From Deltaproteobacteria bacterium (lineage in GTDB: Bacteria; Bdellovibrionota_B; Oligoflexia; Oligoflexales; Bog-1112): a DNA stretch of 64,000 nucleotides. Location of the stretch: contig CANJLI010000005.1 in the NCBI GenBank assembly GCA_947475005.1, positions 5,858-69,857 on the forward strand. Reading direction: 5' to 3'. A program made the position numbers and the translations under genes. Below are positions 7,993 to 42,597 of the stretch, one piece after another. The notes under the pieces are model-generated. The model saw nothing but the letters and a program-made list of their open reading frames with translations, was not told where the DNA came from and did not search any database. Within the stretch, counting starts at the first letter, position 1. Each line of letters begins with the position of its first letter.

Positions 7993-10854
7993 TCAGCCGA
8001 TACAAACCGTGCACAAATTTCGGTCTCCGTAGGCTTCGTTGATGCGTCGCACAGAGGGCCAAAATTTGTTTCGGCCTGTTGCATATCCAAGGGGAAATGC
8101 TGCTTTCTCTCGAGAGTACGGCATATCCCAATTGTCTCGCGCGATGCAAGCAGCCGTATGGGGGGCTTGTTTGATCACATTGTTTTTGCTATCTGCCCGT
8201 CCCTCTTCGATGTCGCGAATCTCTTCGCGAATGGCTAACATGGCATCGCAGAATCGATCGAGTTCCTCCTTGGATTCGCTCTCCGTGGGTTCGATCATCA
8301 ACGTATGACTCACAGGAAAAGAAACCGTGGGAGCATGGAACCCATAGTCAGCTAAGCGCTTTGCGATATCCACAGAATCGATCCCCGTTTGGGTTCGAAT
8401 TTTTCGAATGTCCACAATGCACTCGTGGGCCACAAGTCCGTCGTTTCCTTTGTAGAGGATGGAGTAGTGCGGCTCGAGACGTTTAACAATGTAGTTGGCA
8501 TTTAGCACGGCAACTTGTGCGCATCGCTTCAACCCAGCTGCGCCCATCATACGGATGTAACACCAAGAGATGGGCAAAATCCCCGCACTGCCCCACGGAG
8601 CTGCACTCACCGCACAGTTGGAAGTCGAGCTACCAAGCTGCGTTGCAGTATGCCCCGGGAGAAAGGGGATCAAATGTTGCTTCACTGCAATCGGCCCCAC
8701 ACCAGGCCCCCCTCCTCCGTGAGGGATGCAGAAGGTTTTGTGCAAGTTGATGTGACACACGTCAGCCCCAAAATCCCCAGGGCGACACAGACCCAGCTGC
8801 GCATTGAGGTTTGCTCCATCGAGATAGACTTGTCCCCCACAGCTATGAATCAACGTACAAATCTCGCGAATGGAAGATTCAAAAACCCCGTGAGTGGATG
8901 GATATGTAATCATCATGGCAGCAAGGTTCTCTGCATGAAGTTTGGCTTTTGCCGTGAGATCCTCGAGATCCACATCTCCTTGGGGATTGCACTGCACCTC
9001 CACCACTTGCAATCCAGCTAAGTGTGCACTTGCAGGATTGGTACCGTGAGCAGAAGTGGGAATGAGACAAATCTTGCGATGGCTTTGCTTACGCTGTGCA
9101 TGATACGCACGAATTGCCAAAAGCCCCGCATACTCTCCTTGCGCCCCCGAGTTGGGTTGCAGAGAAACCCCATCGAACCCCGTAATCTCTGCAAGCATGG
9201 CTTCGAGCTCGGTGAAGAGCTGTTGATAACCCAAGGTTTGAGACTTCGGCGCAAAGGGATGAATCTGGGCAAAACCAGGCCACGAAATGGGAAACATTTC
9301 GGTCGTGGCATTGAGCTTCATGGTGCACGAGCCGAGGGGAATCATGGAATCGGTAAGAGAAAAATCTCGAGCTTCCAATCGTTTGATGTAACGAAGGAGT
9401 TCTGTTTCAGAACGATATCGATGAAATACCGGTTGAGATAGAAATCCGGAGGTTCTGCATAAAGAAGCAGGAATCGAACTTTTGGCTGTGGAAAAAAGCT
9501 TATCGATAGAAGTCGATTTCCCCTGGGGAGCCAGACACGTAAGCAAGGCTTCCACATCGGGTTGGGTGGTGGTTTCATCCAAGCTGATACTTACAACGTG
9601 AGTATCCCAAACCCGGACGTTCATGCCTCGCTCTTGGGCTCGTTGCTGTACCGCTTCGCTCGTGAGCCCTTGTAGTTGGAGCTGCACCGTATCGAAGAAT
9701 CCGGTGCTGGATACTTTGTGTCCCAAGCTACGGGCACCTTCTGCAAGCACACAACTCCATCCGTGGGTACGCTCTGCAATGCGAGTTAGACCCTCAGGTC
9801 CGTGATAGACCGCATACATAGCTGCGATATTGGCAAGCAGGGCCTGTGCGGTACAGATGTTACTCGTGGCCTTCTCACGACGGATATGTTGCTCGCGAGT
9901 TTGCAAGGCCAAGCGGTATGCAGGGGCTCCATCTTGGTCCACAGAAACACCCACGATGCGACCGGGCACCATGCGCTTGTTTTCTTCTCGCGTAGCAAAG
10001 AAGGCTGCATGTGGGCCCCCAAATCCCAAAGGAACCCCAAAGCGCTGACTCGTGCCCACGGCAATATCCGCACCCCATTCTCCCGGAGGCGCGAGCAAGG
10101 TCAAGCTGAGCAAGTCACAGGCTACCGCCACGAGGGCACCCTGTGCGTGCGCTTGTTCTACAAAAGAGCGAGGGTCCCCTAGGGAACCGTCTGTTGCAGG
10201 GTATTGCAGCAGGTACCCGAAGAAAACGGGATCGACGCTCTCTTTGTGCACAGCACCTACTACCACTTCCACACCGAGAGGGGCGGCGCGACCGCGTACC
10301 ACTTCGATGGTTTGGGGATGGCAATTTTCTGCGACGAAGAATCTCTTACTCCCGTCTGTGTTTTTAAGTTGATGGCACAAAAACATGGCTTCAGCCGCAG
10401 CAGTACCTTCGTCCAAGAGAGAGGCATTGGAAATGGGCAATGCGGTGAGCTCACTCACCACAGTTTGGAAGTTGAGCAAGGACTCCAGTCTGCCTTGGGA
10501 GATCTCGGCTTGATACGGCGTGTATTGGGTGTACCACCCTGGATTTTCCAGAATGTTGCGCTGGATGACACCGGGGAGCAAGCTATTGGCATAGCCAGTG
10601 CCGATGTAGGATTTGAGGGATTGGTTTTTGGCTGCGATTTTCTTCAATGCCTCGAGAGCTTCTGTCTCGGACAAAGGCGCTGGAAGATCCAGCGCGCGAT
10701 TTAACTGAATGTCTTTGGGCACCAGCGCTTGACTCAGCGCCTCGAGGGAGGCGTAGCCGAGGGTTTGCAGTGCTGCTTCTTGTGCTGGCTCGCCAGAGCC
10801 AATATGACGGGAGACAAAAGATTCTTTGTGGGCACAGACGGTCTGAATGTTCAT
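7993..10854 (-). CDS. gcvP: Glycine dehydrogenase (decarboxylating), single-chain P-protein
   Basis: 953 aa. PLP-lysine region [16 protein letters not shown]. Full-length GcvP architecture. Confidence 0.95.
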
Positions 10855-10943: not shown

Positions 10944-11213
10944 CTATGCAGCATCTTTCATCTTTTGCCGGGCTATAAAAAGGTCGTACTGAGCCTGCAT
11001 TTGTACCCACATTTCTGCCGTGGTTCCAATTACTTTTTCCAGCTCTAAAGCAAACTCCGGTGTAATGCGACGTTTGCCATTTACAATTTCATTTACTTTT
11101 CTATGGGCACAGTCAAGCTTTCTGGCAAGATCGCTTTGTGACAACCCCATTTCATCCATATAAATTTCAGCTAACACGAGACCCGGGTGCAATGGTTTTG
11201 GATTAGACAACAT
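10944..11213 (-). CDS. higA: HigA-family antitoxin (XRE HTH)
   Basis: LHPGLVLAEIYMDEMGLSQSDLARKLDCAHRKVNEIVNGKRRITPEFALEL. Lies directly downstream of a HigB-like ORF. Confidence 0.85.
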   Translation of the reverse strand: MLSNPKPLHPGLVLAEIYMDEMGLSQSDLARKLDCAHRKVNEIVNGKRRITPEFALELEKVIGTTAEMWVQMQAQYDLFIARQKMKDAA

Positions 11214-11228
11214 TATAACCTCATATTA

Positions 11229-11555
11229 TTAATGATAGTCCAAAATTTGGACATCAATAAACTCACCTTGTTGAAACTTAAAAATAATCCGCCAGGGACT
11301 TCCATTTTTCATTGTAACACTCCAGTACTCCTTTAAATTCCCTTGAAGACGATGCAGCCTTATGTTTGGAGGTTCTCCAAGAATTTTTAAGTCCGATAGT
11401 GTATCTGTTGCATTCATAATTGTTAAAATTGCCTTAGCCCGAAAATGCAGTTCTCTGGGTAATTTTTTCGATGAATTTTTCTCCCATATTTCCTCTGCTA
11501 TCTTATTGCCCAGGCTTTTTATCATGATTCCCCGCGTAAGAAATCCACATTTCAT
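11229..11555 (-). CDS. higB: HigB-like (RelE/ParE superfamily) toxin; likely start at 11525
   Basis: Small ORF ending ...RLHRLQGNLKEYWSVTMKNGSPWRIIFKFQQGEFIDVQILDYH, typical of the plasmid-maintenance killer family. 15-nt gap to higA. Confidence 0.8.
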   Translation of the reverse strand: MKCGFLTRGIMIKSLGNKIAEEIWEKNSSKKLPRELHFRAKAILTIMNATDTLSDLKILGEPPNIRLHRLQGNLKEYWSVTMKNGSPWRIIFKFQQGEFIDVQILDYH

Positions 11556-11715: not shown

Positions 11716-12651
11716 TTAGGATCGTTGAGGAGCCCCAAGACCCAGGTGCTCGAGAGCCCAAGTAATACTGGGCCCTCTTTCTTTTCCAAAACGGGTCTCT
11801 GTCGGTCTAAACTTACCTAGCCAAGAAACATCTCCAAGCACGACTGCCCCCACTCCAACAGATTTTCTGCTGGTACCCGCATCATAAGGTTGATATTTTG
11901 CAGTCTGCCAGATCATACCCAAAAAAGTCTTAATAGATGATTCATCTTTATAAGTATCAGTTTTCCCAAATTCCGGAGGCCGATATTGAGGCCGCGATGA
12001 AGTATACACGCCAATGGTAGGACCGAAGCTAAATCCTACACCGGAACGCCCCAATATTTTATATGATTGCCGCATGAGTTCTCTTTTTCCAAATCGGTTT
12101 TTTTGCACTCCAAAACCAAATCCAGCGGTATAAAAATCTCCCCATGGCCAAAACCACCCAATCTCCAGGCCCCAAGCTCTAAATTCAGGTCCTATGTCTT
12201 CAATGTTAAAAAATGTACGCACAAACGAATTCACGAGTGGATCCTTCTGCTCTGTCGGTTTCTCAGCAGAAATAACAAAATTTTCAACTGCTTTCCACTG
12301 GGCCAATACCTCGGCTGTTTCTTGTGCAGTGTCACGATCTAACTCGAGGAGTTCCCTTGTAATATCGCCTTTTGTTTGTTCCAGAGTTTTAATTTTGGCA
12401 ACCACAGAGTGAAATAGGATAGTTGCATTTTTTTTTGCTTCGTACGAGTACCCTTCTGAAGTTTTCATCGACTCCACTGTCGACAACACCCTGGAAATAA
12501 TATCTGAATAGATGGGTTCTCGAGAGGCATACAAATCTACTTCTTGTTGATGGATCGAGGATCCTAACAAATGTTCCTCTTGCGAGGCCGAAAAACCAGC
12601 ACACCCGTACCCACACAACATAGCTGCGAGAAAAATTTTTTTCACAATCAT
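11716..12651 (-). CDS. Secreted hypothetical protein, paralogue family member A
   Basis: Signal peptide MIVKKIFLAAMLCGYGCAGFSA. Helical N-half and Gly/aromatic-rich C-half ending HLGLGAP. Alignable to the ORFs at 14134 and 15453. Confidence 0.7.
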   Translation of the reverse strand: MIVKKIFLAAMLCGYGCAGFSASQEEHLLGSSIHQQEVDLYASREPIYSDIISRVLSTVESMKTSEGYSYEAKKNATILFHSVVAKIKTLEQTKGDITRELLELDRDTAQETAEVLAQWKAVENFVISAEKPTEQKDPLVNSFVRTFFNIEDIGPEFRAWGLEIGWFWPWGDFYTAGFGFGVQKNRFGKRELMRQSYKILGRSGVGFSFGPTIGVYTSSRPQYRPPEFGKTDTYKDESSIKTFLGMIWQTAKYQPYDAGTSRKSVGVGAVVLGDVSWLGKFRPTETRFGKERGPSITWALEHLGLGAPQRS

Positions 12652-12864
12652 GTTCTCTCCTTTTTTCCACCGCGTGAGAGATAAACATAATGAAACAAAA
12701 TTATTTTTCCTACGTAGAAAGAGGAAAATAAGTAAGATACTTTAATGGATATTTCTGGGGATATAAAGAGGGGACACTCGCATCGGGCGTCTCCTTTCTC
12801 CTTGCCCTTTCTTAATTGCCATGAGAAAAAAAAACAACTCAGCCCAGTATTTTAAAGGACTTTT

Positions 12865-14070
12865 ATGCGCCATTCTATTTTATGTTTTCTTGGAGCTCTT
12901 TTTTTTACAGTGGGTTTGCAAGCTGCGCCAGTAGGAGTGGGAATAAGTTCTGACACAGAGAAAAAATTTCTTTCCTTTTCCGAGCTTTCCCGCCTTATCC
13001 AAAATCCCCACATAGTAACGCCAAAGACCTTACAAAAACTGCACACACATATTACGCAGTTGACTGCTATTTTAGTGGCAGAAAGGGTCAAAATTTTACA
13101 AGTGGAGATGAAAGGAAGAATCACAAAAAATCGCCATATTGCTTCGTATTTTACTGATATTGCAATTCATCATTCCGATGACCTTCTTCCGATTCTGTTA
13201 AATCCCATTGAGGAAAAAAAATCTTTCTCCAATGAACTTTTTTCTATTCTAGAACAAGCTGGCTCAGAGGCTAATCTTGCTTTTTCGAGAAAACCAAAAC
13301 CACAAGACGCTCAACTCAATGGATATACGCAAACAGAAAAAGAAAGCATTCTTTCAAGCTGGGATGTCTTGTCGAGGCTGCATTGGACATTGAGCAAGGA
13401 AGCAAAAGAGTTACGTACACGAACCTTCGATGCGGTTTCTTTGGCGGTGTCTCCACGTTTCACATTTGAACACTTCCACTCCCCCAAGCCGGGCACCACT
13501 GATCCGATTATTACTTCTACGGGTTCGAAAGAGCTGGATCTACTATTTTTACAGTCAGAGGAAGAATACGCAAGTCCACAGCAATATGAGTTGGAAGTAA
13601 ACCGGTACAAAGACATGTATCAAAACAAAGTACGACTGTACAAGCTCCGAAAGCCGTTGATTGAAAAAATTTTCTCCAAGATTACAGATGGTATTGAATC
13701 GATGAAGCGAATCCACGCAGGAACAGAACTTGACTTCGCCATGATACTACTATTAAAGACCGTCGAAGAATTGGAACCACTTTTGAAAAGTGAAAATGAT
13801 ATTACCGCTGACCTTCATCTCCTTGCTACTACCACAAAAGAGCGGGTCAAAAATAATATCGCTTATTGCAAAGCCGGAGTGGTCCCTTTTTTTCAACTTG
13901 ACGAATCCCCCTTGAATAATGGAATCCAAATGATCGCAAACCTTTACTTTGATGATTTTGGTTTTAGGAATAAGAGCATTTTGGAATACATAAGGCCTGC
14001 CCATGTCCGCAAAAAAATATTTTGTTTCCTGTCTTGCAGATTGGTTCACCCAGCTAAACATGTCTACTAG
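12865..14070 (+). CDS. Secreted hypothetical protein
   Basis: 401-aa ORF with signal peptide MRHSILCFLGALFFTVGLQAAP. I recognise no family motif. Confidence 0.6.
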   Translation: MRHSILCFLGALFFTVGLQAAPVGVGISSDTEKKFLSFSELSRLIQNPHIVTPKTLQKLHTHITQLTAILVAERVKILQVEMKGRITKNRHIASYFTDIAIHHSDDLLPILLNPIEEKKSFSNELFSILEQAGSEANLAFSRKPKPQDAQLNGYTQTEKESILSSWDVLSRLHWTLSKEAKELRTRTFDAVSLAVSPRFTFEHFHSPKPGTTDPIITSTGSKELDLLFLQSEEEYASPQQYELEVNRYKDMYQNKVRLYKLRKPLIEKIFSKITDGIESMKRIHAGTELDFAMILLLKTVEELEPLLKSENDITADLHLLATTTKERVKNNIAYCKAGVVPFFQLDESPLNNGIQMIANLYFDDFGFRNKSILEYIRPAHVRKKIFCFLSCRLVHPAKHVY

Positions 14071-14133
14071 GCGCCCCCTTTCTCTACGCATATTCCTCGG
14101 GAGACACTTGCATCAAGTGTCTCCTCTTACTCT

Positions 14134-15138
14134 CTATAACGTGGGCTTCACAGGTCGTTCGGGAGCACCGATGCCAAGCCGAGTGAGAATCCATGGCACA
14201 TCATACCCGATAGATCCACCGCAATGGCAGAGGCATTGACTTTCCTCTGTCATTCTATACCAGTGGTCATCAGGGGCTGAGCAGGCAAAAGCAGGACCAA
14301 TTCCATAAGATCGGTACTTCAGGCTCCCTGTATCTATGCTCCGCCTTAAACATAGAAAACCTTCGTTATAGCGCTTTGGCTTTTCTGAATTACGGCTTCC
14401 AATTTTTGCAGAAAAGACACTGAGGGATAAACCATAGCCACCCTCGCTACCATTTAGATCCTCAGGACCCACAAGACATTGTAGGATTGGATATGCCTTT
14501 CCGAAGGGTCGTCGTTCTTTACCTACACCACATCCGCAAAAAGGAGCGGGCTCCAGCACATAGCAATTTAATGAGACGCCTACCGTATGGGTGCTATTCT
14601 TTTTAAGAATATCTGCGCGTACTACATCTATGACTTTCTCGTTTATTTCTAGTTCATTTTGTCCTTTAAGCATTTGCACAAGGGCATCAAATTGGCCCTC
14701 CGACATCTGATTGTCTATAATCGGCTTGCAACCACTTCTCAAATCTTCCATCTTCTTTTCATAGTCTGCATATAAATCTGTGAGCACTGACTCTGTAACA
14801 CCCTGTTCTTTTTCATGTTTTCTAAAATCATGGATGAAACGACTTAATTCAGATAGAGCTACCTCATAAGCGAATCTTATATTTGACCTTTTCATTTTTT
14901 CAACATTTGAAATAATTACTTTAACAACACGAAATAAACCCATTTCTCGAGATTGATACAGTTTTACATTATCTTTGTACGTCTGCTTATGCCCCTCATA
15001 AGTTTCCAAATCTGTACGTGGCCTCACTGCAGCATCTCTCGCAGCATCTCTCAATAATCCGCTGTTCTCATCGGCTGCATGCAGCCGAATCGTGTACATA
15101 CACAATAGACTCCACAGCAGAAATTTTTTCACCAGCAT
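14134..15138 (-). CDS. Secreted hypothetical protein, paralogue family member B
   Basis: Signal peptide MLVKKFLLWSLLCMYTIRLHA. Shares blocks with 15453..16517: VKVI..VEKMKR, VIDVV.AD..K..THTVG, GCGVG and GYDVPWIL..LGIG.P. Confidence 0.7.
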   Translation of the reverse strand: MLVKKFLLWSLLCMYTIRLHAADENSGLLRDAARDAAVRPRTDLETYEGHKQTYKDNVKLYQSREMGLFRVVKVIISNVEKMKRSNIRFAYEVALSELSRFIHDFRKHEKEQGVTESVLTDLYADYEKKMEDLRSGCKPIIDNQMSEGQFDALVQMLKGQNELEINEKVIDVVRADILKKNSTHTVGVSLNCYVLEPAPFCGCGVGKERRPFGKAYPILQCLVGPEDLNGSEGGYGLSLSVFSAKIGSRNSEKPKRYNEGFLCLRRSIDTGSLKYRSYGIGPAFACSAPDDHWYRMTEESQCLCHCGGSIGYDVPWILTRLGIGAPERPVKPTL

Positions 15139-15288
15139 ACTACCTCCATTTTTACAAATTCAAATGGGACCATAATGAAAGAAATTTTGCATGCCTATCT
15201 AGAAATGAAACGGGAGGAAAATATTGTAATAGGATTTACTGGTGGAAAAAAGGTGGCATCCGATGCGAGTGTCCCCAAGTCCTATGTT

Positions 15289-15409
15289 CCGTCATCCCAA
15301 GGCTGCAAAGCAGCCGTATGGGATCTCAGTGTTTTTATCGAGATCCCATACGGTCCCTTCGGGACCTTGGGATGACGGACTTCTCAGATCCCATACCTTG
15401 GGATGACGG
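15289..15409. repeat. REPIN-like double-hairpin element plus a truncated extra unit
   Basis: ccgtcatcccaaggctgcaaagcagccgtatgggatc ... gatcccatacggtcccttcgggaccttgggatgacgg, then gatcccataccttgggatgacgg. Confidence 0.85.
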
Positions 15410-15452
15410 ACTCGATCCAGGGACACTCGCATCGGGCGCCCCCTACTGTTGA

Positions 15453-16517
15453 TCACAACGCTGTCTCAACCTTCTTTTTTTTCCCTGAGGGCACTCCAGT
15501 AGAGTGCCTTATCCTCTTCGGTTTCCAAGCTATTGGAGTTCCGATGCCAAGCTGATCCAGAATCCACGGTACGTCATATCCGAGGAGAGCTCCACAGCAA
15601 GAGGTGTGGCACTTAGATGTGGAGATTCCAGATTTCCAATTGAAGAACGGACTGGGTATCATCGGGTCCCTCGTTTCGTTTTTCTGAGGTACCGAATGTC
15701 TCGGGCATACACAGCCAGGGCCCACACCACAAGACAAAAGATCCAAGTCCCAATCACTTACATTCCGGTATAAAACCGCCAGACATCCCCATTCCCTGCC
15801 TTTTTGAGGTTCCTGGCGGTACCCTTTCCGCATTTCTGCAGAGAAGAGACTGAAGAACAAACCACAGTCGCAGCAATCCCTTTCACCGCCCTCTTCCTTA
15901 CCTTCATAAACTTGCACGGCAAGAGATTTCTTTCCCAAAGCCTTGCGTACGGTACCTACCCCACATCCATAAGAGCGAGAGGAAGGATAAGGCCAACATG
16001 GAAGGCAAAGCAACAGCTCAGCTGTCTCGCAAAAAAAACAATCCACAGATGCGCCTACCGTATGGGTCGTATAATTTTTTCGATAGTCTGCCGTCACGAC
16101 ATCGATTACATTTTGATTTATTTTTTCTCTGAATTGGCTTTTATAGTCTTGCATAAGTACGTCAAATGCCTCCTGCGATAGCTGATTGTCCACAGACGTA
16201 CGACAAGTCTCTGTCCAGGCGGTCATCTTTGTATATGTCTCACGCAATGTGAGAAATGTTTCCTCCGTTACGCTCTCGTTTTCTTCATTCTCGTGAAGCT
16301 CGTTAATGAATTCTGTGAACTGAGATAGAGCCGCCTTGTAGGCATGGCTTACATTCACCCTCTTCATTTTTTCTACGCTTTCTGCAATCACTTTCACGAT
16401 ACGAAACAACTCGGCCTGGCGTCGCGACGCTTGTATTTCTTCTCCTGTTGCTGCGTGCATCCCCACTGTGTAAATACAACATAGAACCCAGAATAAAAAT
16501 ATTTTCGCCATTATCAT
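15453..16517 (-). CDS. Secreted Cys-rich hypothetical protein, paralogue family member C
   Basis: Signal peptide MIMAKIFLFWVLCCIYTVGMHA. Same conserved blocks as member B, with a basic C-terminal tail. Confidence 0.7.
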   Translation of the reverse strand: MIMAKIFLFWVLCCIYTVGMHAATGEEIQASRRQAELFRIVKVIAESVEKMKRVNVSHAYKAALSQFTEFINELHENEENESVTEETFLTLRETYTKMTAWTETCRTSVDNQLSQEAFDVLMQDYKSQFREKINQNVIDVVTADYRKNYTTHTVGASVDCFFCETAELLLCLPCWPYPSSRSYGCGVGTVRKALGKKSLAVQVYEGKEEGGERDCCDCGLFFSLFSAEMRKGYRQEPQKGREWGCLAVLYRNVSDWDLDLLSCGVGPGCVCPRHSVPQKNETRDPMIPSPFFNWKSGISTSKCHTSCCGALLGYDVPWILDQLGIGTPIAWKPKRIRHSTGVPSGKKKKVETAL

Positions 16518-16666
16518 ACCTCCCTATTGGTAAATGCAGGGAGGACCATAATAAAAGAAATTTTGTACGGCTATCGAGAAATGAAGAAGAGGGGAAATAC
16601 TGTAATAGAAATGAACGGTGTGCGTACAGTGGGGACACCCGATGCGAGTGCCCCCAGTCTCAAGTT

Positions 16667-16756
16667 CCGTCATCCCAAGGTCCTGAAAGGACCGTATGGG
16701 ATCTCGATAATTTCAATGAGATCCCATACGGCTGCTGCGCAGCCTTGGGATGACGG
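16667..16756. repeat. REPIN-like double-hairpin element
   Basis: ccgtcatcccaaggtcctgaaaggaccgtatgggatc ... gatcccatacggctgctgcgcagccttgggatgacgg. Confidence 0.85.
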
Positions 16757-16815
16757 ACTCTCGGCCCAGGGACACTCAAATGAAGACGGACTCGGTCCAA
16801 ACGGAGTGTCCCCCC

Positions 16816-17691
16816 CTACCCAGAGATGCGGTCACGGTGGGAGACATCGATGTGAACATGGGGGAGTTTTTTCTCCCGCAAGCGAAAGCCAAGTTCTTCT
16901 GCGATGCAAACACTGCGATGTTGACCTCCGGTGCAGCCGATACCGATGCGCAGGAAGTGTTTACCCTCTTCGTAATACTGAGGCAAGAGCCACGTATGCA
17001 GGCGCTCCAGCTCCTCTAAAAAATGCAGTGCTTTTGGATCTGTGAGCACAAAGTCCCGTACCCCTGGATCCAGTCCACTTTGGTTACGCAAATTGAGAGT
17101 AAAAAATGGGTTTCGCAAGAAACGCACATCAAACAGCATATCCGCAGGTTTGAGCATCCCATGCTTGAATCCAAAACTCTTGATGGACACAAACAGCGTA
17201 CGCTGTAGCGAAGCAGAGAAATACCGCTTCTCCAAAATGCGCCCCAACTCCGAAGGGGAGATGTTGGTGGTTTCAATCACCAGTTTTGCCACCCGTTGGA
17301 TGGGCTGCAAAAACTCACTCTCCGCTTGGATGGAATCTGTCAGATTGGGGTTGGAATCAGAAAAAGGATGGCGACGACGATTGGCCTCAAAACGAGACAA
17401 CAAGGTTTCGACTTCTGCCGTCAAGAAAACCAAATCCACTTCAAGCTGAGGCTCGAGCTCTCGAATGAGCGCCAACAGACTGGAAATTTCTTCTCGTTCA
17501 TACAGATGCAACCCAAGAGCGATATCCTTGTCCATAAACGGAGTCGACTTCATTGCCAACAGCGGCTTCACCATACTGAGAGGCAAATGGTCGATGCAAT
17601 GCACCCCCAGATCCGAAAGACAGTTTGTAGCTGCACGAATGCCAGCGCCGGAAAGTCCAGTCAGTAATATCAGTCTTCGCTTGGTTTCCAC
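16816..17691 (-). CDS. rapZ: RNase adapter protein RapZ (YhbJ-type P-loop NTPase)
   Basis: LILLTGLSGAGIRAATNCLSDLGVHCIDHLP and the C-terminal block IGCTGGQHRSV. Lies downstream of rpoN, as in proteobacteria. Confidence 0.9.
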   Translation of the reverse strand: METKRRLILLTGLSGAGIRAATNCLSDLGVHCIDHLPLSMVKPLLAMKSTPFMDKDIALGLHLYEREEISSLLALIRELEPQLEVDLVFLTAEVETLLSRFEANRRRHPFSDSNPNLTDSIQAESEFLQPIQRVAKLVIETTNISPSELGRILEKRYFSASLQRTLFVSIKSFGFKHGMLKPADMLFDVRFLRNPFFTLNLRNQSGLDPGVRDFVLTDPKALHFLEELERLHTWLLPQYYEEGKHFLRIGIGCTGGQHRSVCIAEELGFRLREKKLPHVHIDVSHRDRISG

Positions 17692-34335: not shown

Positions 34336-35298
34336 TCACTGCATCCGAGTGAGCAATATATCAAGCTGACCCACTCCGTCACTTACACTTTGAATGGCAT
34401 TATCGGGGTTATATAGGGTATAAATCTCGGAGCCACCTTGCGTAGCTTTTGTTTTAACCCATATGGTTGGATCAAGAGGGTTTTCGAAGTTGTCATACCA
34501 CTCTGCAACCGTGCTGAAATCTTCCTCGCTCTCTATATAAGGAAAATAACTGATAGAAGAATAAGAGATCTCATGTTCTTTCCATTTAGTTAGATCAACA
34601 GCTCCATCCCATTCGTTGTGAACATTACCACTTAACATGATTCGCTTGGGGGCAGAGAAATCGGTAACTTTCACTATTAGTATTTTTATATCATCCATGT
34701 ACCAAGTTATTAAGTTAGGCCTCCACTCGATGGAATAATTATGAAATTCACTAAAATAGGTAGGGGCCATATTTGTTATTGTGTATGCGCCTTCACAAGG
34801 ATGTACTACAGGAACTATGGTTTGAGCACCCCCTAAGATTTCAATATCAAACTCTTCCTGTGTTTCTGTACTATATAGAAAGAAGGCTGACACCGTTCCT
34901 CTAAAAGCCGCAGGCTTCATCCGTGCTGTGAATTTTCCATATTGAAAAGTCCTTGCTGTATAGATCTCTGCTGAATAGAAATGCTTTTCATTGCTCTTTT
35001 TGGGTTCAGAGACAAGATCTTGTGAGCTAGAATAGGAATACTGTTTAAAAAAATTGTGATTTCGGGGTTCAAGAGTGGAGGCTTGTGCTTTACCGAGAGA
35101 TCGGCCTGTATTATGGGTCTCACAATTAAAAGGCGTATAATCGGTAAGGGGGGATTTATTTTTTCCCCTTACCTGGGGGTCCTTTTGGGTATCGGAAAAA
35201 TCCATGCAACCAATTGTATATACAGAAATAAGAAGAAATACAAAAGAGTATTTAAAGTTCAAAAAAATCCTTTCAAGTTCAAAAAAATCAAACTGCAA
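34336..35298 (-). CDS. GH16-family (lichenase/laminarinase-like) glycoside hydrolase lipoprotein, copy 1 (probable TTG start at 35262)
   Basis: YGKFTARMKPAAFRGTVSAFFLY ... EEFDIEILG ... FHNYSIEWRPNLITWYMDD parallels Bacillus lichenase YGLYEVRMKPA...SSFFTY...DEIDIEFLG...YHTYAFDWQPNSIKWYVDG. Lipobox TIGC. Confidence 0.8.
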   Translation of the reverse strand: MQFDFFELERIFLNFKYSFVFLLISVYTIGCMDFSDTQKDPQVRGKNKSPLTDYTPFNCETHNTGRSLGKAQASTLEPRNHNFFKQYSYSSSQDLVSEPKKSNEKHFYSAEIYTARTFQYGKFTARMKPAAFRGTVSAFFLYSTETQEEFDIEILGGAQTIVPVVHPCEGAYTITNMAPTYFSEFHNYSIEWRPNLITWYMDDIKILIVKVTDFSAPKRIMLSGNVHNEWDGAVDLTKWKEHEISYSSISYFPYIESEEDFSTVAEWYDNFENPLDPTIWVKTKATQGGSEIYTLYNPDNAIQSVSDGVGQLDILLTRMQ

Positions 35299-35354
35299 AC
35301 TCTGTTTTTACTTCTTCCCGCTAGAAGCTCAACCCCTTTAGGGCATTGAGAAAT

Positions 35355-36284
35355 TCATTGCATCCGAGTGAGCAATATATCAAGCTGGCCTACTCCGTTA
35401 CTTACACTTTGAACGACATTCTTGGGGTTATATAGGGTATAGTTCTCAGGACTACCTCCCGCAGCTTGTGTTTTAACCCATATGGTTGGATCAAGAGGAT
35501 TTTCAAAGTTGTCGCGCCACTCTGGGACCGCGCTGAAATCTTCCTCATTCTCTATATAAGGAAAATAACTAAGAGAAGAATAAGAGATCTTATGTTCTTT
35601 CCATTTAGTTAAATCAACATCCCCATCCCACTTTTTGTGAACATTAGAACTTAACATGATTCGCTTGGCAGCAGAGTAATCGCTAACTTTCACTTCTAGT
35701 ATTTTTATATCATCCATGTACCAAGTTACTAATCTAGGCCTCCATTCAATGGAATAATTATGAAATTCATTAAAATAGGTAGCGTTCATATTTATTGTTT
35801 TGAAGGCTTTACAAGGATGTACTACAGGAACTATGGTTTTAGAACCTCCTAATATTTCAATATCAAACTCTTCCTGTGTTTCTGTACTATACAGGAAGAA
35901 GGCTGACACCGTTCCTCTAGAAGCCACGGGTTTCATCCGTGCTACGAATTTTCCATATTGAAAAGTTCTTGCTGTATAGACCTCTGCTGAATAGAAATAC
36001 TTTTCAGAAAGGTTGGAATTTTGGGCTTCGGAGACGAGATTTTGGGATTGAAAATAGGCATAGTTTTTAAACAGGTCACGATTTCGGGGTTCAGGAGCAA
36101 AATTTTGTGCATTAGCAAGAGACCGGCTTGTATTCTTGGCCTCACAATTAACGGATGTATAATCGGTAAGGGGAGGATTATCCTCCCCTCTTTTTACAGA
36201 TGAGGGCTCCCTTTTAGCTAAATTCATACAACCCACTGTATATATAGAAATAAACAGAAAGGCAGAAGAGTATTTAAATTTCAA
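35355..36284 (-). CDS. GH16-family glycoside hydrolase lipoprotein, copy 2
   Basis: Close paralogue of copy 1 with the same E-x-D-x-E motif (EEFDIEILG). Lipobox TVGC. Confidence 0.8.
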   Translation of the reverse strand: MKFKYSSAFLFISIYTVGCMNLAKREPSSVKRGEDNPPLTDYTSVNCEAKNTSRSLANAQNFAPEPRNRDLFKNYAYFQSQNLVSEAQNSNLSEKYFYSAEVYTARTFQYGKFVARMKPVASRGTVSAFFLYSTETQEEFDIEILGGSKTIVPVVHPCKAFKTINMNATYFNEFHNYSIEWRPRLVTWYMDDIKILEVKVSDYSAAKRIMLSSNVHKKWDGDVDLTKWKEHKISYSSLSYFPYIENEEDFSAVPEWRDNFENPLDPTIWVKTQAAGGSPENYTLYNPKNVVQSVSNGVGQLDILLTRMQ

Positions 36285-36322
36285 AATAATCCTTTCAAGT
36301 TCGAAAAGTTAAACCACCAATG

Positions 36323-37657
36323 CTACTTTTGATTCTTTCTGCTATAGTACTCTTGAGTTACTGTTTTATCAAATAGTTCTATGCGGTGCGTTATATTGTG
36401 ACACTTTTGAGCTAGCCTATGTCCTTGTTCTCTTATTATAGCCAAGTCTTTTCTTCGCTTGGGAGACAACCAGTAATCCACTGTTTTGTTTAAATTTTTA
36501 GGCGTTGAAGCTATATAATGCACATTCTCAATCATTCCTAATTGCCGCAAGAATGGGACATATAGCTTATCAGCCAGCAGAACTGTTCCTGTTGCAGGAA
36601 TTTCAAAATGTTTTGCAATGACATAGGGTCCAAAAGTTTTATCTGGATATGGCCCCCCCCCAACGGCGATGTCATAGTTTACAATCCATTGTGCAAAATC
36701 AGCCGCTTCTTCCAACGCATTTACTTCAGTATTATAGCCTTTGTGTATATGCTCTTTCCATAGAGGTGATTTTTTAACTTTAATTTCTTCACGTGCAACT
36801 TTGCGCAAAGGATACCAATCATCGTCGCTTTCCTTTCCCAATAAAAGGACTTTATGGGTTTTAGACGTTGCTTGTGAATCAAAAAAAGGTTGTGAAGCTG
36901 CATGAGGAAAGACATAACATGAGTTGATCTTAGAGGCGTCCACAAATTTCATCATATGCTCGGGATAGCGCGCAAACAGCACATCCATCCATGGGTAGGA
37001 GCGTTTAAGCGGTTCTATATCATCTGCCCAATTCAGATCTTCGACGATCAAAACTTTGAAAACCGGAAGAGTGGGTAAATCAGACCACTTGTCTAGAATA
37101 TTCGCTCTTAATACATAAAAAGCGACGACATCTGGTGGAGTGGCTGTTCCAATTTTATTCTGGATATTTTCAAGAAAATTAGGCCCAACTAAGTCGCTAG
37201 AATTAATTATATGCCAAGACTTTTTCCGTTGTAGCTCTTCTATAAAAATTCGGATGAATGTTGCTGTTCCTTTGTAAACTTTCGAGTCCGTATCTATAAC
37301 TATCACTTTTACTAATTTTGCCTCTTGTTGCTCTAGAGACAATGGAGATGGGTTGCTATTTTTGCAAGGGTGATTCAGAATATCGAAATTTCTTTCATGC
37401 TCTGGGCTTAATTTTAATGTAGAATCAGGCGTCACGACATGGAATGATTCAGGTATTGTTTGGTTATTACATCCTTTTTTAGATGGATCTCCAACACCTA
37501 AAGGACAATCGACGGGACACAGTTCAGCAGCCAGAAAAGCAGAAGGCGCCTGAGTTACAGAAACTGGAGAAGAATTCTTAATTGAAGCTCTACAAGCAGG
37601 CATAAACATAAGGAAAATCAAGATGTTAGGCAGAGCTTGGCAATTCATTATATGCAT
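36323..37657 (-). CDS. Lipobox-bearing protein with a C-terminal CgeB-like (GT1-fold) glycosyltransferase domain
   Basis: C-terminal HFEIPATGTVLLADK...ENVHYIAS...L.AI...G resembles the Glyco_trans_1_2/CgeB pattern. N-terminus LIFLMFMPAC. Confidence 0.5.
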   Translation of the reverse strand: MHIMNCQALPNILIFLMFMPACRASIKNSSPVSVTQAPSAFLAAELCPVDCPLGVGDPSKKGCNNQTIPESFHVVTPDSTLKLSPEHERNFDILNHPCKNSNPSPLSLEQQEAKLVKVIVIDTDSKVYKGTATFIRIFIEELQRKKSWHIINSSDLVGPNFLENIQNKIGTATPPDVVAFYVLRANILDKWSDLPTLPVFKVLIVEDLNWADDIEPLKRSYPWMDVLFARYPEHMMKFVDASKINSCYVFPHAASQPFFDSQATSKTHKVLLLGKESDDDWYPLRKVAREEIKVKKSPLWKEHIHKGYNTEVNALEEAADFAQWIVNYDIAVGGGPYPDKTFGPYVIAKHFEIPATGTVLLADKLYVPFLRQLGMIENVHYIASTPKNLNKTVDYWLSPKRRKDLAIIREQGHRLAQKCHNITHRIELFDKTVTQEYYSRKNQK

Positions 37658-37777
37658 TTCTTTAGCTTTCTAATAATTCAAATAAATCGGTTATCCTACT
37701 GATATCTATGAAAAGCTGGTCCGCTCAAAATTTTTTATATTTTTCCTCTGCACATTCTCTATGGATTTCTTATGAAA

Positions 37778-38626
37778 TCAAGGCGCAACACAGCCACTCG
37801 CTTGGTTTTTATCACGACGACCCATTTGATCGATGCCAGACTTTTCTGGATCGGTGCTAGTTTTAACAAGTTCTGGATTTATACAATATGCTTGAAATTT
37901 TGGATCTGTAAAGAAATATTCCCCAATTAATATATCAGTAGGCATATTTCTTAAAGGCATCACCTTCTCATTTATCTTGCGTGCACTTTCTGCGTTAATT
38001 AAATATGCGACATTTCCTGCTGTACAGCTCGCGCTTAAAAACGAATATCTCTGATCCCGTGTCTTTGGAGTCCGGTCCTTTGGGCAGCCCCAGTGATAAT
38101 TTGCATTGCAATATAGATAAATCAGATCCCAGTTTTTAGGCAGGTGCTTTAGAGTATCATCAAGACGATTTTTAAAATCAGGAGGAAGTTCACTATCGTC
38201 TTCTAAAACTAAAGCCACCTTATGGCCGCTCTTGATGACCATTTTTGAAACTTCATAGTGTGATAATTTATTTCCAACTTCACCTGGAGATAAAGGTTTA
38301 AAGGGTAACTTTGGATCGCATTGATAGGAATAACCCTTATCTGCATCTAGTATTTGCAATGCAGTAGAAGTACGCTCGTAATTAAAGGACATGCCGTAGA
38401 TAGCTGAAAATCGAGTGAATGGAAGTGCTAGCCCATCAAGTTGATCCTGCATGGCCCTCATCTTCTTTTTGTCACGATCTAAATTTATAACAATGGTTTC
38501 ATCAAGACTTTCTTCGGTATATGTTACCGGCCAAGTCCTCATTTGTGCTCTACGATCTGTCGTAGTTTGAAGACAACCTTGAAAAAGAAAAAAAAATGCC
38601 CCCAAATAGGAAACTGATTTTCTCAT
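37778..38626 (-). CDS. Glycosyltransferase family 25
   Basis: VINLDRDKKKMRAMQDQLDGLALPFTRFSAIYG, GEVGNKLSH and ALVLEDD match GT25 blocks. N-terminus LGAFFFLFQGC. Confidence 0.8.
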   Translation of the reverse strand: MRKSVSYLGAFFFLFQGCLQTTTDRRAQMRTWPVTYTEESLDETIVINLDRDKKKMRAMQDQLDGLALPFTRFSAIYGMSFNYERTSTALQILDADKGYSYQCDPKLPFKPLSPGEVGNKLSHYEVSKMVIKSGHKVALVLEDDSELPPDFKNRLDDTLKHLPKNWDLIYLYCNANYHWGCPKDRTPKTRDQRYSFLSASCTAGNVAYLINAESARKINEKVMPLRNMPTDILIGEYFFTDPKFQAYCINPELVKTSTDPEKSGIDQMGRRDKNQASGCVAP

Positions 38627-39124
38627 TTCTACTCCCTGATATTTTTCTACTCATTTATTGGGCAACAATTTTTTGGACATAAAAAACCTTGGGCTCTAAC
38701 CACAACTAAATGTCATTGCCAGAGCCCAAATCTGCTCTTTTTTTACAATCGTCACTCTTGTGCCATCATCTCTTTATTATGAAATATTGTCAAATTTAGA
38801 TACAATTTGGAAAATAATTTCGATGGACACTATTCTTCAAATCGCTTGTTAGATTTTAAATCCACAAAAAAAATGCAAAAAATCTCGTATAAAAAGGATG
38901 TTAATAGAAATTAAGTTTCACAAAGAGTCTATTGACCCTAGCTCAAAAAACGATGTAAAATATGAAGCAACACTTTTAAAAATCACTTCATTTGGTAAAA
39001 AAAAAGCTATTAGCTATTAATAAAGAGAAATTTATGGGGCTCTATAGTGTATCTTGAAGATTTGATTGGTTAAAAATTATCCAATTTCGAAAACAAGAGT
39101 TATTTTATATTCAAGGGGGGCCCT

Positions 39125-40039
39125 ATGAGGCTTTATTCTATTCTCTTATTTGCTCTAGGTATTTCCTCCTGTAGAATTACCTCTGAGGACAGAGGAAATG
39201 AAATGTCCTCTATTATTTCTGATGTGGGAATCCCCAAAAAAATTCATCAGGTATGGATAGGACAAGACAAAGAACCGGATTATAATCAGTATTATAAGGA
39301 GTCTATGTCTAAACATGCTCCAAATCATGAGTATAAACTTTGGACCAATAAAGATCTGACGCGAGAAAATTTTCCCATTGTGTACGACTATATACTGCAA
39401 GCAAGCGAAGCAGGTAAAAGAAAATATGGCGTAGACCCAAAAATGTGGAATGGGACACCTACAAGAAAATTAGCTCAAATTTCTGATCTGATGCGTCTTG
39501 AAATTATCTATCATCATGGAGGATTTTACTTTGATGTTAAAACAGAACTTTTAAAATCAATTGACCATTTAAGTACTCCAAATATTTCATTTGTTGTCGC
39601 CAATGAAGACCCTTGTGGACTTACATGTAAGAGTGGAAATAAACTATACCTCTCTAACTCGATCTTCGCTTCAGCTCCTAATAGTAAGATTCTTCAACGC
39701 TTGCTGAAGAAAGACCGGTTAGAACAAATTAAATTCGATCGAGACGAAGTCAATGAAGAAACTGGGCCTTTTTATTTTCGTTCTGGTATTCTTAATGCAA
39801 ATGAAGTGCATCTATTAAAAACAGATGAGGCCTTCCCATACATTTCTTGGACCTCTCCTTATCAAAAAGCAGGAGTTGATAGATGCCTTTCAAAAGAACG
39901 TGATTCACTTAAAACAAGCGATGATCACGTTAAGACAATAATTATAAAAAATGAGACTGTGTACTTAGAATACCCTTGTGAAAAATATCCTACCAGCCTC
40001 TTAGTCATGCATTGGAATTTGGGAGGAACCTGGAAGTAA
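39125..40039 (+). CDS. GT32-type (Gly_transf_sug/OCH1-like) glycosyltransferase
   Basis: IPKKIHQVWIG...EYKLWTN...ISDLMRLEIIYHHGGFYFDVK matches the family signature. Lipobox GISSC. Confidence 0.75.
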   Translation: MRLYSILLFALGISSCRITSEDRGNEMSSIISDVGIPKKIHQVWIGQDKEPDYNQYYKESMSKHAPNHEYKLWTNKDLTRENFPIVYDYILQASEAGKRKYGVDPKMWNGTPTRKLAQISDLMRLEIIYHHGGFYFDVKTELLKSIDHLSTPNISFVVANEDPCGLTCKSGNKLYLSNSIFASAPNSKILQRLLKKDRLEQIKFDRDEVNEETGPFYFRSGILNANEVHLLKTDEAFPYISWTSPYQKAGVDRCLSKERDSLKTSDDHVKTIIIKNETVYLEYPCEKYPTSLLVMHWNLGGTWK

Positions 40040-40101
40040 TCTTTTCTACCTCAATTTTTAGAAATTAAGGCTTATCTGCATCAGATTTTTTAGAGGAAAA
40101 A

Positions 40102-41322
40102 ATGAGACTTCAATTCATCTGTCCTTTTCTTTTTTGCATAATTGCTTGCGCTCAAATTAGAAATGAAAATGAGCCTTTTCAGTTTTCCCCTCTTCGTTCT
40201 TTGGCTGAATTCCCGACAATGCGAATTTTTCCAGAAGATGAAAACATAAAAAATTCGGATTCAGAAAAATTCAATACTCAGTTTAAAAAATATTTTCGAG
40301 TCATTGATCAGAGCGACTCTTCTGAAGAAATTGTAGATATTAATTTGTTTATGGGAACCGTCCATTCAAACCAATTAAAAAATGGAGTTGAAAATTGGAT
40401 TTTCCTTGACCCAACTGCACAAATAGATGCATCTTCATTAAAAGATATTGATACCGTAATCAGCAAAAATGCTGAGTTTACATTGCTTATTCCATATACA
40501 AAAAATAAGAAAAAAGAATTTTTTCATGTCGCTGAATTAGATGGTGAAAATTTCTCTACCCAAATAAGAGTGGTTTATGACAGCTATGTAGAAAGACGAC
40601 CAATATCTATTTCTAAATCATTCTATATAAATTTAGATCGATCTACCGATAGAAAAAAATTTATGGAGAAGCAGAATCAAGAATACGGACTCAACCTAAC
40701 CAGATTTCCTGCTGTAGATGGATCCGTTTTTAAAAATCAGTACATCGTCCAGCCGGAAACATCAATTTTACAAAAGCTTACCTATGGTCAAGATGAATTT
40801 TTATATAATTATAGAAAAGACCATTACGGAAAAGGGATGACTTTTGGTGAGATCGGAAATTTTTTAAGTCTTTTTTATATTATGAAAACCATAGTGGAAG
40901 ATAATTATCCAATCACATTAATTCTTGAAGATGACGCCAAAATTCCCAAAAATTTTAATGCTAAAATAGGAAATTATCTTAAGAAAGCACCGAAAAATTG
41001 GGACATCATATATCTTTATTGCAATTCTCATGAATCTTTTGGTTGTAACTATAGATTTAAAAAAACAAGAGATGGATTATTTAGCACCCTTAGCGGAGGA
41101 AGTTGCGTAGCCGGTATGGTAGCGGCTGTTCTTAGCCAAAAGGGTGCTAGAAAAATACACAGACAATTACTTTTACCGATCTCCCGCCCCGTCGATATGC
41201 TGATTGGAAACCAATTTATGCCACAAAAGTTGGATGAATTTTCCGCTTTTTGCACAACGCCAGAACTTGTGACTACCGGCGATTTAGGTTCTGAAATCAA
41301 AGGAATGGGGAGAGAGCATTAA
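40102..41322 (+). CDS. Two-domain protein: unknown N-terminal ~170 aa plus a GT25 glycosyltransferase domain
   Basis: FYINLDRSTDRKKFMEKQNQEYGLNLTRFPAVDG, GEIGNFLS, LILEDD. Lipobox IIAC. Confidence 0.75.
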   Translation: MRLQFICPFLFCIIACAQIRNENEPFQFSPLRSLAEFPTMRIFPEDENIKNSDSEKFNTQFKKYFRVIDQSDSSEEIVDINLFMGTVHSNQLKNGVENWIFLDPTAQIDASSLKDIDTVISKNAEFTLLIPYTKNKKKEFFHVAELDGENFSTQIRVVYDSYVERRPISISKSFYINLDRSTDRKKFMEKQNQEYGLNLTRFPAVDGSVFKNQYIVQPETSILQKLTYGQDEFLYNYRKDHYGKGMTFGEIGNFLSLFYIMKTIVEDNYPITLILEDDAKIPKNFNAKIGNYLKKAPKNWDIIYLYCNSHESFGCNYRFKKTRDGLFSTLSGGSCVAGMVAAVLSQKGARKIHRQLLLPISRPVDMLIGNQFMPQKLDEFSAFCTTPELVTTGDLGSEIKGMGREH

Positions 41323-41334
41323 TTTTAAATAGAA

Positions 41335-42597
41335 ATGGAGTTGACAATGGAATCTATCTTAAAATTAACACTGTTTTCTCTTGTCTTTTACTTTACCCTT
41401 CAATCTTGTTCGTCAATTAAAATTAAAAATGATGACAGTGACATGAGGAATAAAACAAAGATTAATGGAAAATTAGTTGAAGTTAATTTTGGAAACCGTC
41501 TATGCAAACACCCCGATTTTAAGGATTCACGAATCCCTGAGTTACAGGCAACTCACACTATAGAAAGGTTGAATGATCCAATCTTCAAAGCTGCCATACA
41601 ATATGAAATCCCTCTTATAAAATTTCAATATAACTCATCCATTGTTCGCATTGATGATTCTGGTTATTTGATGACAGTAAGATTTGATTGCACAAACCGG
41701 TCTAATCAAAATACGCAAAGCTACACCCTGGTCCATGAACTCAATAATGAGCTCACACCTGTGTCCGACTTGCAGTTTTTAAAAATACCTTCATTTCTAG
41801 ATGCAAAAATAGAAAATGGTATCGCCGAAGATATGAGACTGTTTAAAATTAAAGATCAAATATATGGAACAATAGGTGATAATCTAGACGGAAGAAATTA
41901 TTATTTTCCTGATAGACGAATACACCTTCTTAAAATTTCTACAGAAATGGGGGAATGGAAAGCAAAATCAATTGAATTTTTTTCTTCCCCGAAAGACTCC
42001 CCTATAAAAGGACCCGAGAAAAATTGGGCCCCTATCCCTATTTTTACCAGCTCCGACTCAGAATCACCACTTCTCGTCTATGCGCTAGATCCCCAATATA
42101 TGCTTGCTAAAGCCACTCCGAATAAAACAATACAGGGAGAAAGAGAGATTGAAATAGTCAAACCCTGTAACAGGACACTCCCCTGGGATCGCGCTCAATA
42201 CGGAAAACTTCGGGGCGGTACCCCATTGATTTGGTTAAATGAGCTGCAAGGATATTTAGGTTTTTTTCATACGGCAAAGCATCTGGAAAATGAAAGAGGC
42301 AATATATACTACATGGGAGCCTATGTAGTGAATGGTACAACTAAGTGTGTATCTCATATTTCTCCCGCTCCTTTACAGTACACTGGCATGTATGATGCAA
42401 AAGAAGAAGAAAAAGGGTTTTGGATTCATAATGCGGGGCCAGATACTGAAGTGATATTTCCAACTGGGGTCGAAATTTCTGTTTGGGAGGGGCAGCAGGT
42501 AATTATTGTATCAGCAGGAATCAATGATTACAGAGTAAAAAATTTTATCCTAGACAGACAAGCTCTAACTGAAAGTTTGTCGAAAATAACGCCATAG
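41335..42597 (+). CDS. Lipobox-bearing hypothetical protein; possibly a GH130/GT108-like beta-propeller (weak)
   Basis: 420-aa ORF with N-terminus FYFTLQSC. The short motifs AEDMRLF and PEKNWAPIP recall DUF377/GH130-type enzymes, but nothing more supports this. Confidence 0.5.
   Translation: MELTMESILKLTLFSLVFYFTLQSCSSIKIKNDDSDMRNKTKINGKLVEVNFGNRLCKHPDFKDSRIPELQATHTIERLNDPIFKAAIQYEIPLIKFQYNSSIVRIDDSGYLMTVRFDCTNRSNQNTQSYTLVHELNNELTPVSDLQFLKIPSFLDAKIENGIAEDMRLFKIKDQIYGTIGDNLDGRNYYFPDRRIHLLKISTEMGEWKAKSIEFFSSPKDSPIKGPEKNWAPIPIFTSSDSESPLLVYALDPQYMLAKATPNKTIQGEREIEIVKPCNRTLPWDRAQYGKLRGGTPLIWLNELQGYLGFFHTAKHLENERGNIYYMGAYVVNGTTKCVSHISPAPLQYTGMYDAKEEEKGFWIHNAGPDTEVIFPTGVEISVWEGQQVIIVSAGINDYRVKNFILDRQALTESLSKITP

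Follow-up and report, generated by a model that had tools for sequence, protein, structure and literature searches.

Background

Which proteins are encoded between rapZ and gcvP in an uncultured bacterium of the order Oligoflexales, and what could have made them so different from anything in the databases? The question is raised by a stretch of 64,000 nucleotides (contig CANJLI010000005.1 of assembly GCA_947475005.1), which we call the window throughout. It contains four neighbouring open reading frames, A (11716-12651, minus strand), D (12865-14070, plus strand), B (14134-15138, minus strand) and C (15453-16517, minus strand), and the list of open reading frames confirms each of them at exactly these coordinates. 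A first-pass annotation of the sequence took A, B and C for exported paralogues of a novel family and D for an unrelated secreted protein. In our opinion all four belong together, in an orphan family restricted to one genus; its members would be Sec substrates, located in the envelope or secreted, that may act at a biotic interface and turn over rapidly. This is the reading we favour, and we would put it at about even chances.

One family of four genes

B and C are 34% identical over their full length (BLASTP, E 4e-54). A aligns with B from end to end at 22% identity (E 5e-8, or 2-3e-4 when the six-frame translation of the whole genome is searched) and with C at E 8e-5. The common architecture proposed for these three is thus borne out as paralogy, and from the alignments B and C are clear homologues and A is a distant full-length member. 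The motifs proposed for the trio hold only in part. The VE(K/S)MK helix is present in A, B and C, but VIDVV.AD occurs in B and C only, and G(C/F)G(V/F)G...(F/L)GK and GYDVPWIL..LGIG.P are found in B and C, while A carries a diverged form of them.

We disagree with the view that D is unrelated. Its residues 255-357 align with the helical module of the family (hhalign against the family profile, probability 92.5%, E 4.9e-7), residues 248-397 align with B 50-198 (BLASTP, E 8e-4), and residues 251-337 are 30% identical to A 33-121 (tblastn, E 0.002 genome-wide). The family profile recovers D in a search of the whole genome at E 3.2e-7, and at 7.8e-34 once D itself is in the profile. D is, then, a relative and the fourth member of the family.

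The unit shared by A, B, C and D is a helical module of about 110 residues, whose first helix, L(F/Y)..(I/V)(V/I)K.I...(V/I)E.MKR, shows the strongest conservation in the family. In A, B and C this module comes after the signal peptide and is followed by 150-200 residues rich in glycine, aromatic residues and cysteine, a second module that is probably beta-rich; in D it is C-terminal, behind an orphan domain of about 230 residues. The first-pass annotation spoke of local gene duplication. Any such duplications are not recent: the proportion of synonymous differences (pS) between all members is 0.63-0.72, which is saturated.

How widely is the family distributed?

The window's own genome (2.15 Mb in 68 contigs, 93% complete) holds no further copy of the proteins, of their upstream promoter block or of the C-terminal motif, so that the genome-wide count which the first-pass annotation proposed ends at a single gene cluster. 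There was no match to B in 40 relatives and none to D in 94 genomes of the order. Among 130 other genomes of the phylum the only match to the family profile came from G001, another species of the genus (E 2.1e-5, and 2.0e-24 with a helical-module profile that includes the G001 sequence itself). A coiled-coil frame in G039 (E 1.7e-4 per genome) was rejected as a generic helical protein, having no signal peptide.

A profile search of 1.84 billion representative proteins returned the three query proteins, one genuine new member, P0004 (391 amino acids, E 9e-39), and one artefact, P0005 (1210 amino acids, E 1.2e-12). The latter is a Gram-positive-type protein with seven near-identical repeats, each scoring 8-17 bits against profile positions of about 219-320, and we rejected it because its score is a sum of these weak matches. 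Homologue searches with B, with alignment A2 and with P0004 gave self matches only, P0004 as a query found nothing in genome_contigs or metagenome_contigs, and the C-terminal motif, written as a degenerate DNA pattern, had no match in the JGI metagenomes. Across these collections the family is restricted to one locus and one genus.

Ten contigs from several samples carry the allele set of the window at 100% identity, hence the lineage of the window is clonal. Over the island a single contig departs from full identity, L098 (ENA ERZ28612976), with 3 mismatches in 1258 nt that leave protein A unchanged.

Replacement and decay downstream of rapZ

The window has 5,961 nt between gcvP and rapZ, occupied by higA, higB, A, D, B and C, and wherever the family is found one of its genes lies directly downstream of rapZ. 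What do close relatives carry at this position?

P0004 is encoded on two short ENA contigs, L012 and L013, of a sister lineage whose locus is known from 1.6-1.8-kb contigs only; one of the two shares its metagenome of origin with the contig of the window. On both of them the final 40-55 codons of rapZ stand before the P0004 gene, their DNA being 90-93% identical to the window, and on L012 a second tandem member begins 52 nt after it (MIMAHKFLLWILCCIHT...). P0004 itself is 33% identical to C and 29% to B. By the Nei-Gojobori method the pairs that include P0004 have the same saturated pS of 0.63-0.72 as every other pair, whereas the adjoining rapZ differs at only about 7% of sites. Hence the sister lineage holds, at the same position after rapZ, other and anciently separated members of the family and not a diverged orthologue.

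In G001 the distance from gcvP to rapZ is 581 nt, and RapZ is 85% identical in amino acids to that of the window. Abutting the rapZ stop codon is a frame of about 100 codons whose sequence corresponds to the helical module (...LAAIVREIATAIAKMKRR...). Signal peptide, promoter block and C-terminal half are all missing from it, and it is a remnant.

Conserved flanks thus enclose highly diverged content in close relatives. The interval from gcvP to rapZ is a plasticity zone of about 6 kb, which in the window holds higBA and the four genes, and its hypervariability between close lineages fits a set of proteins that are subject to diversifying pressure or turn over rapidly. We also considered a classical mobile island. 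Inspection of the list of open reading frames, with no dedicated test, showed no integrase, tRNA or flanking direct repeat, and we prefer to speak of a plasticity zone.

Are these genes under selection at all? It is conceivable that they are dispensable island cargo of little or no current function, orphan genes that drift and disappear and that the neighbouring higBA retains for a time. The mere remnant in G001 would fit this, as would the spacers invaded by repeat elements, the low third-position G+C content (GC3) and atypical codon usage (A, B and D have a GC3 of 0.37-0.39, the 8th-11th percentile of the long open reading frames of the genome) and the high overall proportion of nonsynonymous differences (pN), 0.38-0.54. 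However, four frames of 311-401 codons are intact in DNA of about 43% GC, the sister lineage has intact members, and promoters and ribosome-binding sites are conserved across lineages. Further, the motifs are conserved, with pN well under the saturated pS. A substitution analysis by block, of the kind the first-pass annotation proposed, found pN lowest, at 0.13-0.26, in the block of the first helix, in the GxGxG..(F/L)GK block and in the C-terminal tail, which points to purifying selection acting on the protein and not to recent gene conversion. We therefore consider drifting cargo very unlikely and return to a family of exported proteins in rapid turnover.

Layout and predicted promoters of the locus

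The features of the locus, in the order of the window, are as follows.

7993..10854, minus strand: gcvP (glycine dehydrogenase), conserved flank, from its Pfam GDC-P annotation
10944..11213, minus strand: higA-like helix-turn-helix (HTH) antitoxin gene, where the island borders on gcvP (PHROG 1381, "plasmid antitoxin with HTH domain", 1.5e-23); the identical gene is annotated with Pfam HTH_3
11229..11555, minus strand: higB-like toxin gene (PHROG 3066, "toxin of TA system", TA standing for toxin-antitoxin, 1.2e-19; annotated as PF05015 HigB-like_toxin)
11716..12651, minus strand: member A, 311 amino acids, with predicted signal peptide, helical module and a Trp/Phe/Gly-rich, Cys-free C-terminal half ending ITWALEHLGLGAP
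12686..12720, minus strand: promoter and 5' block of A, a diverged copy of the B/C block (repeat family D3 and upstream alignment)
12770..12795, no strand: short hairpin GGGGACACTCGCATCGGGCGTCTCC of repetitive extragenic palindromic (REP)-like type, 104-141 copies genome-wide
12865..14070, plus strand: member D, 401 amino acids, with predicted signal peptide, orphan N-terminal domain of about 230 residues and helical module at residues 255-357, without the Gly/Cys-rich C-terminal half
14101..14125, no strand: short hairpin at the point where D and B converge, likely a bidirectional terminator or REP copy (repeat family D4; sequence)
14134..15138, minus strand: member B, 334 amino acids (open reading frame; BLASTP to C)
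15167..15207, minus strand: promoter block of B, TAGATA-18-CATTAT, then GGAGG and ATG (upstream alignment and genome search)
15251..15444, no strand: REP cluster between B and C, in which short hairpins (15251-15276 and 15420-15444) flank a 92-nt palindrome (15288-15379), with an extra arm at 15396-15410
15453..16517, minus strand: member C, 354 amino acids, 18 Cys, with an A8 tract just before the stop codon
16543..16583, minus strand: promoter block of C, TCGATA-18-TATTAT (upstream alignment, promoter scan and genome search)
16631..16813, no strand: REP cluster between C and rapZ, with a short hairpin (16631-16655), a 92-nt palindrome (16666-16757) and a hairpin near 16769-16813
16816..17691, minus strand: rapZ, conserved flank, from its RapZ Pfam domain annotation

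The pair at 10944-11555 has the arrangement of HigBA modules, a HigB-like toxin gene of the RelE fold upstream of an HTH antitoxin gene. The stop codon of A is overlapped by a hairpin followed by a run of T.

A, B, C and the P0004 gene have in common an upstream block of about 120 nt, ...ATTTCTATTACAG...CATTTCT(A/C)GATAG...AAAATTT.TTT(C/T)ATTATGGTCC...GGAGG..ATG, and before C a promoter scan picks TCGATA-18-TATTAT. Since each gene has its own conserved block, and the block occurs nowhere else in the genome, A, B and C are probably each transcribed on their own from a family-specific promoter, which would be sigma-70-like and followed by a GGAGG ribosome-binding site. With rpoN nearby, a sigma-54 promoter was considered too; it was rejected by eye, the GG-to-GC spacing in TGGTCC...TGCAT being 8 nt and not 10.

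Repeats do separate the genes, as had been claimed, but they are not specific to the cluster. One kind is a 25-nt hairpin, GGGGACACTCGCATCGGGTGTCCCC, whose core has 104-141 copies in the genome, and the other a palindrome of about 92 nt, TCCGTCATCCCAAGG...CCTTGGGATGACGGA, an arm of which has 229-332 copies; both are always intergenic. They are the general REP-like hairpins of this genome and not a feature of the family. In the sister lineage only the short hairpin lies between rapZ and its family gene; the long palindrome is absent there, hence the long elements are later insertions. The empty site of G001 (L011 9760-9900, between gcvP and the remnant) contains a hairpin variant of its own, ..tcatccccagcgac..gtatgggctcccccac, twice in tandem, and the REP-like family thus diversifies between species. 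The repeats also fragment assemblies: 45 of the 136 contig ends of the genome (G000) lie within 300 nt of a REP-like element, and the Logan contigs L006-L008 all end precisely in the repeats that separate B from C.

Could the locus vary by phase variation, as contingency genes do? In promoters and 5' coding regions we found no repeats of the phase-variation kind, and neither simple-sequence repeats of the contingency type nor invertible or cassette sites; the repeats present are the genome-wide REP elements. The only tract of the simple kind is the A8 before the stop codon of C (window 15466-15480, minus strand), 3' of the conserved tail. P0002, a 50%-identity representative from another assembly, ends ...GKKKEG where C of the window ends ...GKKKKVETAL, a difference consistent with one A more or less in this tract, and probably without effect because the tract follows the conserved tail.

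Predicted export and the C-terminal half

At the N-terminus, all four proteins run from a basic n-region through 12-15 hydrophobic residues to a small-residue site (..HA/A.., ..LQA/AP.., ..FS/AS.., with the slash at the presumed cut). The signal peptides claimed by the first-pass annotation are matched by this pattern, as judged by eye only, and Sec signal peptides are a plausible interpretation of it. The canonical lipobox [LVI][ASTVI][GAS]C is absent from the family: a cysteine of the hydrophobic region is preceded by L-L, L-C, M-L or Y-G, and P0004 has no cysteine in that region, hence no lipobox either.

In the C-terminal half, 12-15% of the residues are glycine, [C/F/Y]-G-hydrophobic-G turns recur, hydrophobic runs alternate, and the conserved tail GYDVPWIL..LGIGAP closes the sequence. 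As the first-pass annotation noticed, C is especially rich in cysteine, having 18 residues, against 11 in B and 2 in A. The positions of the cysteines are not conserved; they swap with Phe, Tyr or Trp among members, as in GCGVG / GYGLG / GFGFG and in SCGVGPGCVC / SYGIGPAFAC / SCGIGPGCAW.

An AlphaFold2 model of B, built from a four-sequence alignment, has a helical bundle at residues of about 45-177 with a per-residue confidence (pLDDT) of 70-87. Residues 180-315 have a pLDDT of 20-30 and no usable fold, and the result is likewise with A as the target; no closed barrel is seen in either model.

The first-pass annotation raised a small beta-barrel or outer-membrane anchor as something to look for. 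On this account the family would consist of envelope proteins anchored in the outer membrane, in which the Gly/aromatic half is a small beta-barrel or an oligomeric anchor and the helical module is periplasmic or a stalk, with a structural role and not one in an arms race. The composition of the half, rich in glycine and aromatic residues, its alternating hydrophobic patterns (for example GLSLSVFSAKIG / GLFFSLFSAEM / GVGFSFGPTIGVY), the few short hairpins that AlphaFold2 places in it and the Lpt genes adjoining the locus can all be read this way. On the contrary, the C-termini (...KPTL, ...ETAL, ...PQRS, ...IRPE) end in L, S, L or E and never in the aromatic residue of a beta-signal, 9-18 cysteines in the C-terminal half of B, C and P0004 are rare for outer-membrane barrels, neither model has a barrel, and no Pfam family of outer membrane proteins, autotransporters or glycine zippers matches even at E<=10. 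The non-aromatic termini and the many cysteines already disfavour the barrel, and we judge the anchor as a whole unlikely.

Does the tail sort the proteins in some other way? No NCBIfam or Pfam model of a C-terminal sorting tag (LPXTG, PEP-CTERM, GlyGly-CTERM, MYXO-CTERM or the C-terminal domain of type IX secretion, T9SS CTD) matches, and the tail, GYDVPWIL..LGIGAP.RP, has no hydrophobic run of transmembrane length. Three proteins only of the genome possess it.

The genome encodes 2 VKOR and 4 DsbA-like domains, no DsbB, and 4 secretins. VKOR and DsbA-like domains were seen in the same long open frames of 390-426 amino acids (G000:C15:2149-5038 and C16:26290-27411), while DsbB was not found, and this suggests a periplasmic disulfide system of fused VKOR-thioredoxin oxidases.

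The exchange of cysteine for aromatic residues is also what one would expect if both served as hydrophobic or membrane-seeking residues. Hence the family might consist of effectors directed at a eukaryotic host or prey, whose Cys clusters (CC, CCCC), or Trp/Phe clusters in A, target membranes, for example through host S-acylation; a small genome of 2.15 Mb would agree with such a life. However, classical Sec signal peptides lead to the periplasm and not to a host cell, no dedicated translocation system was linked to the locus, and an association of the organism with a host is itself conjectural. To our minds this explanation has a slim probability, and exported proteins that stay in the envelope or act outside the cell are preferred to it.

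Searches for known families and folds

Is the family truly an orphan? Pfam, NCBIfam, PHROGs and PADLOC contain no significant match for the whole A, B, C or D proteins; the best Pfam matches (E 0.003-0.27) are all far under the cut-offs, and the C-terminal halves and the N-terminal domain of D, scanned separately, have nothing relevant in these libraries at E<=10. Searching PDB sequences by hmmsearch with profiles A2 and A6 gave generic helical proteins only (E>=0.012). Foldseek of the AlphaFold2 model against the PDB gave no match at E<=0.001, a test that is weak in the C-terminal half, where the model is of low confidence. A literature search on freshwater metagenome-assembled genomes of Oligoflexales gave nothing relevant. 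The earlier statement that no known family is recognisable therefore stands after profile, PDB-sequence and fold searches, and the profile and structure check proposed with it assigned neither a housekeeping nor any other family. At the sequence level A, B, C and D are indeed an orphan family, with six or seven members in all in one uncultured genus.

These searches also bear on antagonism. The proteins could be secreted antagonists, toxins of a bacteriocin-like kind or aimed at prey, against which D or a neighbour would protect, in lineage-specific sets of toxin and immunity. Locus content replaced between close lineages, Gly/Cys-rich C-terminal halves and an adjacent toxin-antitoxin module agree with that, and a colicin E2 receptor-binding coiled coil turned up in one row of the fold search and one of the PDB-sequence search, at non-significant scores. 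But no family of toxins, immunity proteins or bacteriocins came up in the scans of Pfam, NCBIfam, PHROGs and PADLOC, and all four proteins have predicted signal peptides, none of them resembling a small cytoplasmic or membrane immunity protein. Moreover the C-terminal tail is the most conserved part, and polymorphic toxins vary at the C-terminus. We find antagonism improbable to a high degree, and retain a family of exported proteins with rapid turnover as our hypothesis.

The favoured hypothesis

How might such a family work? The proteins would be exported by Sec, oxidised by the VKOR/DsbA-type system that the genome encodes, and would then work in the envelope or extracellularly. As the constant parts, the helical module and the conserved tail may serve for scaffolding or anchoring, and the variable core may meet a biotic partner (phage, prey or host, or kin), contact with which would drive the rapid replacement of members between lineages. 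Part of the first-pass proposal, a surface or secreted antigen, adhesin or effector family, agrees with this: the locus is replaced between close lineages, as diversifying pressure or rapid turnover would have it. Surface, adhesin and effector roles as such are pure inference.

Several points weigh against our hypothesis. The export prediction comes from N-termini read by eye only. Cysteines that are not conserved and alternate with aromatic residues are unusual for structural disulfides, and the C-terminal half stays at a pLDDT of 20-30 in both models. The population with this allele set is clonal, no diversification having been seen within the lineage. Further, the same pattern between lineages would arise if ancient paralogues were lost differentially, with no selection for diversity at all.

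A more daring version can be put forward. The locus downstream of rapZ could be an ancient balanced polymorphism, in which anciently diverged sets of members are maintained and exchanged among close freshwater lineages. They would encode a new extracellular fold, a helical bundle joined to a Gly/Cys/aromatic beta-module, which would determine specificity, for example as a phage-receptor decoy or as a factor of attachment to prey or host or of kin recognition. This version is tentative, and in our opinion it is unlikely.

In defence of attention to this locus, a fixed position after rapZ, replacement of content, decay in a congener and selection limited to certain blocks form the signature usual for proteins that face phages, prey, hosts or kin. 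The locus may thus offer a handle on what an uncultured, small-genome lineage of disputed lifestyle exposes to its partners. The module of the C-terminal half, for which AlphaFold gives no model and the profile libraries no match, is a candidate new fold. The family is one of very many lineage-specific exported orphan families in genomes from metagenomes.

Elsewhere in the window, positions 34336-42597 have a low GC content (0.33-0.39). Two tandem paralogous lipoprotein-like frames lie there (34336-35298 and 35355-36284), glucanase-like by eye, and several frames with signal- or lipoprotein-like N-termini resemble, again by eye, glycosyltransferases of the lipopolysaccharide type. This is possibly a second variable island, for surface glycans.

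Comparison with known systems

Tandem families of variable surface proteins include the chlamydial Pmp proteins, the Cys-rich OmcA and OmcB and the Vsp proteins of Mycoplasma, and TraA of Myxococcus is a receptor of kin recognition. The locus resembles these in its clustered paralogues, each of A to D having an N-terminal signal (as read by eye), in a variable, partly Cys-rich core that lies between an N-terminal signal and a C-terminal tail, both of them constant, and in content that differs sharply between close lineages. It differs from them in having no sequence or fold similarity to Pmp, OmcA/OmcB, Vsp or TraA, no lipobox, autotransporter barrel or MYXO-CTERM-type transmembrane tail, and no phase-variation repeats, and its paralogues are anciently diverged and not homogenised.

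With small outer-membrane beta-barrels and the anchors of trimeric autotransporters the family would share a signal peptide, a helical N-terminal part and a Gly/aromatic-rich, apparently beta-rich C-terminal part; unlike them it has no terminal aromatic residue, many cysteines, no Pfam match and no predicted barrel.

The pair at the edge of the island is like other HigB/HigA modules (PF05015 with HTH_3) in sequence and in place, the edge of a variable region being a common position for toxin-antitoxin genes, and it is a neighbour only of the four exported-type genes. The elements in the spacers, short hairpins and palindromes of about 90 nt in hundreds of copies, always intergenic, are like REP, BIME and REPIN sequences. 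They are separate from the protein family, and the long palindrome is lacking after rapZ in the sister lineage.

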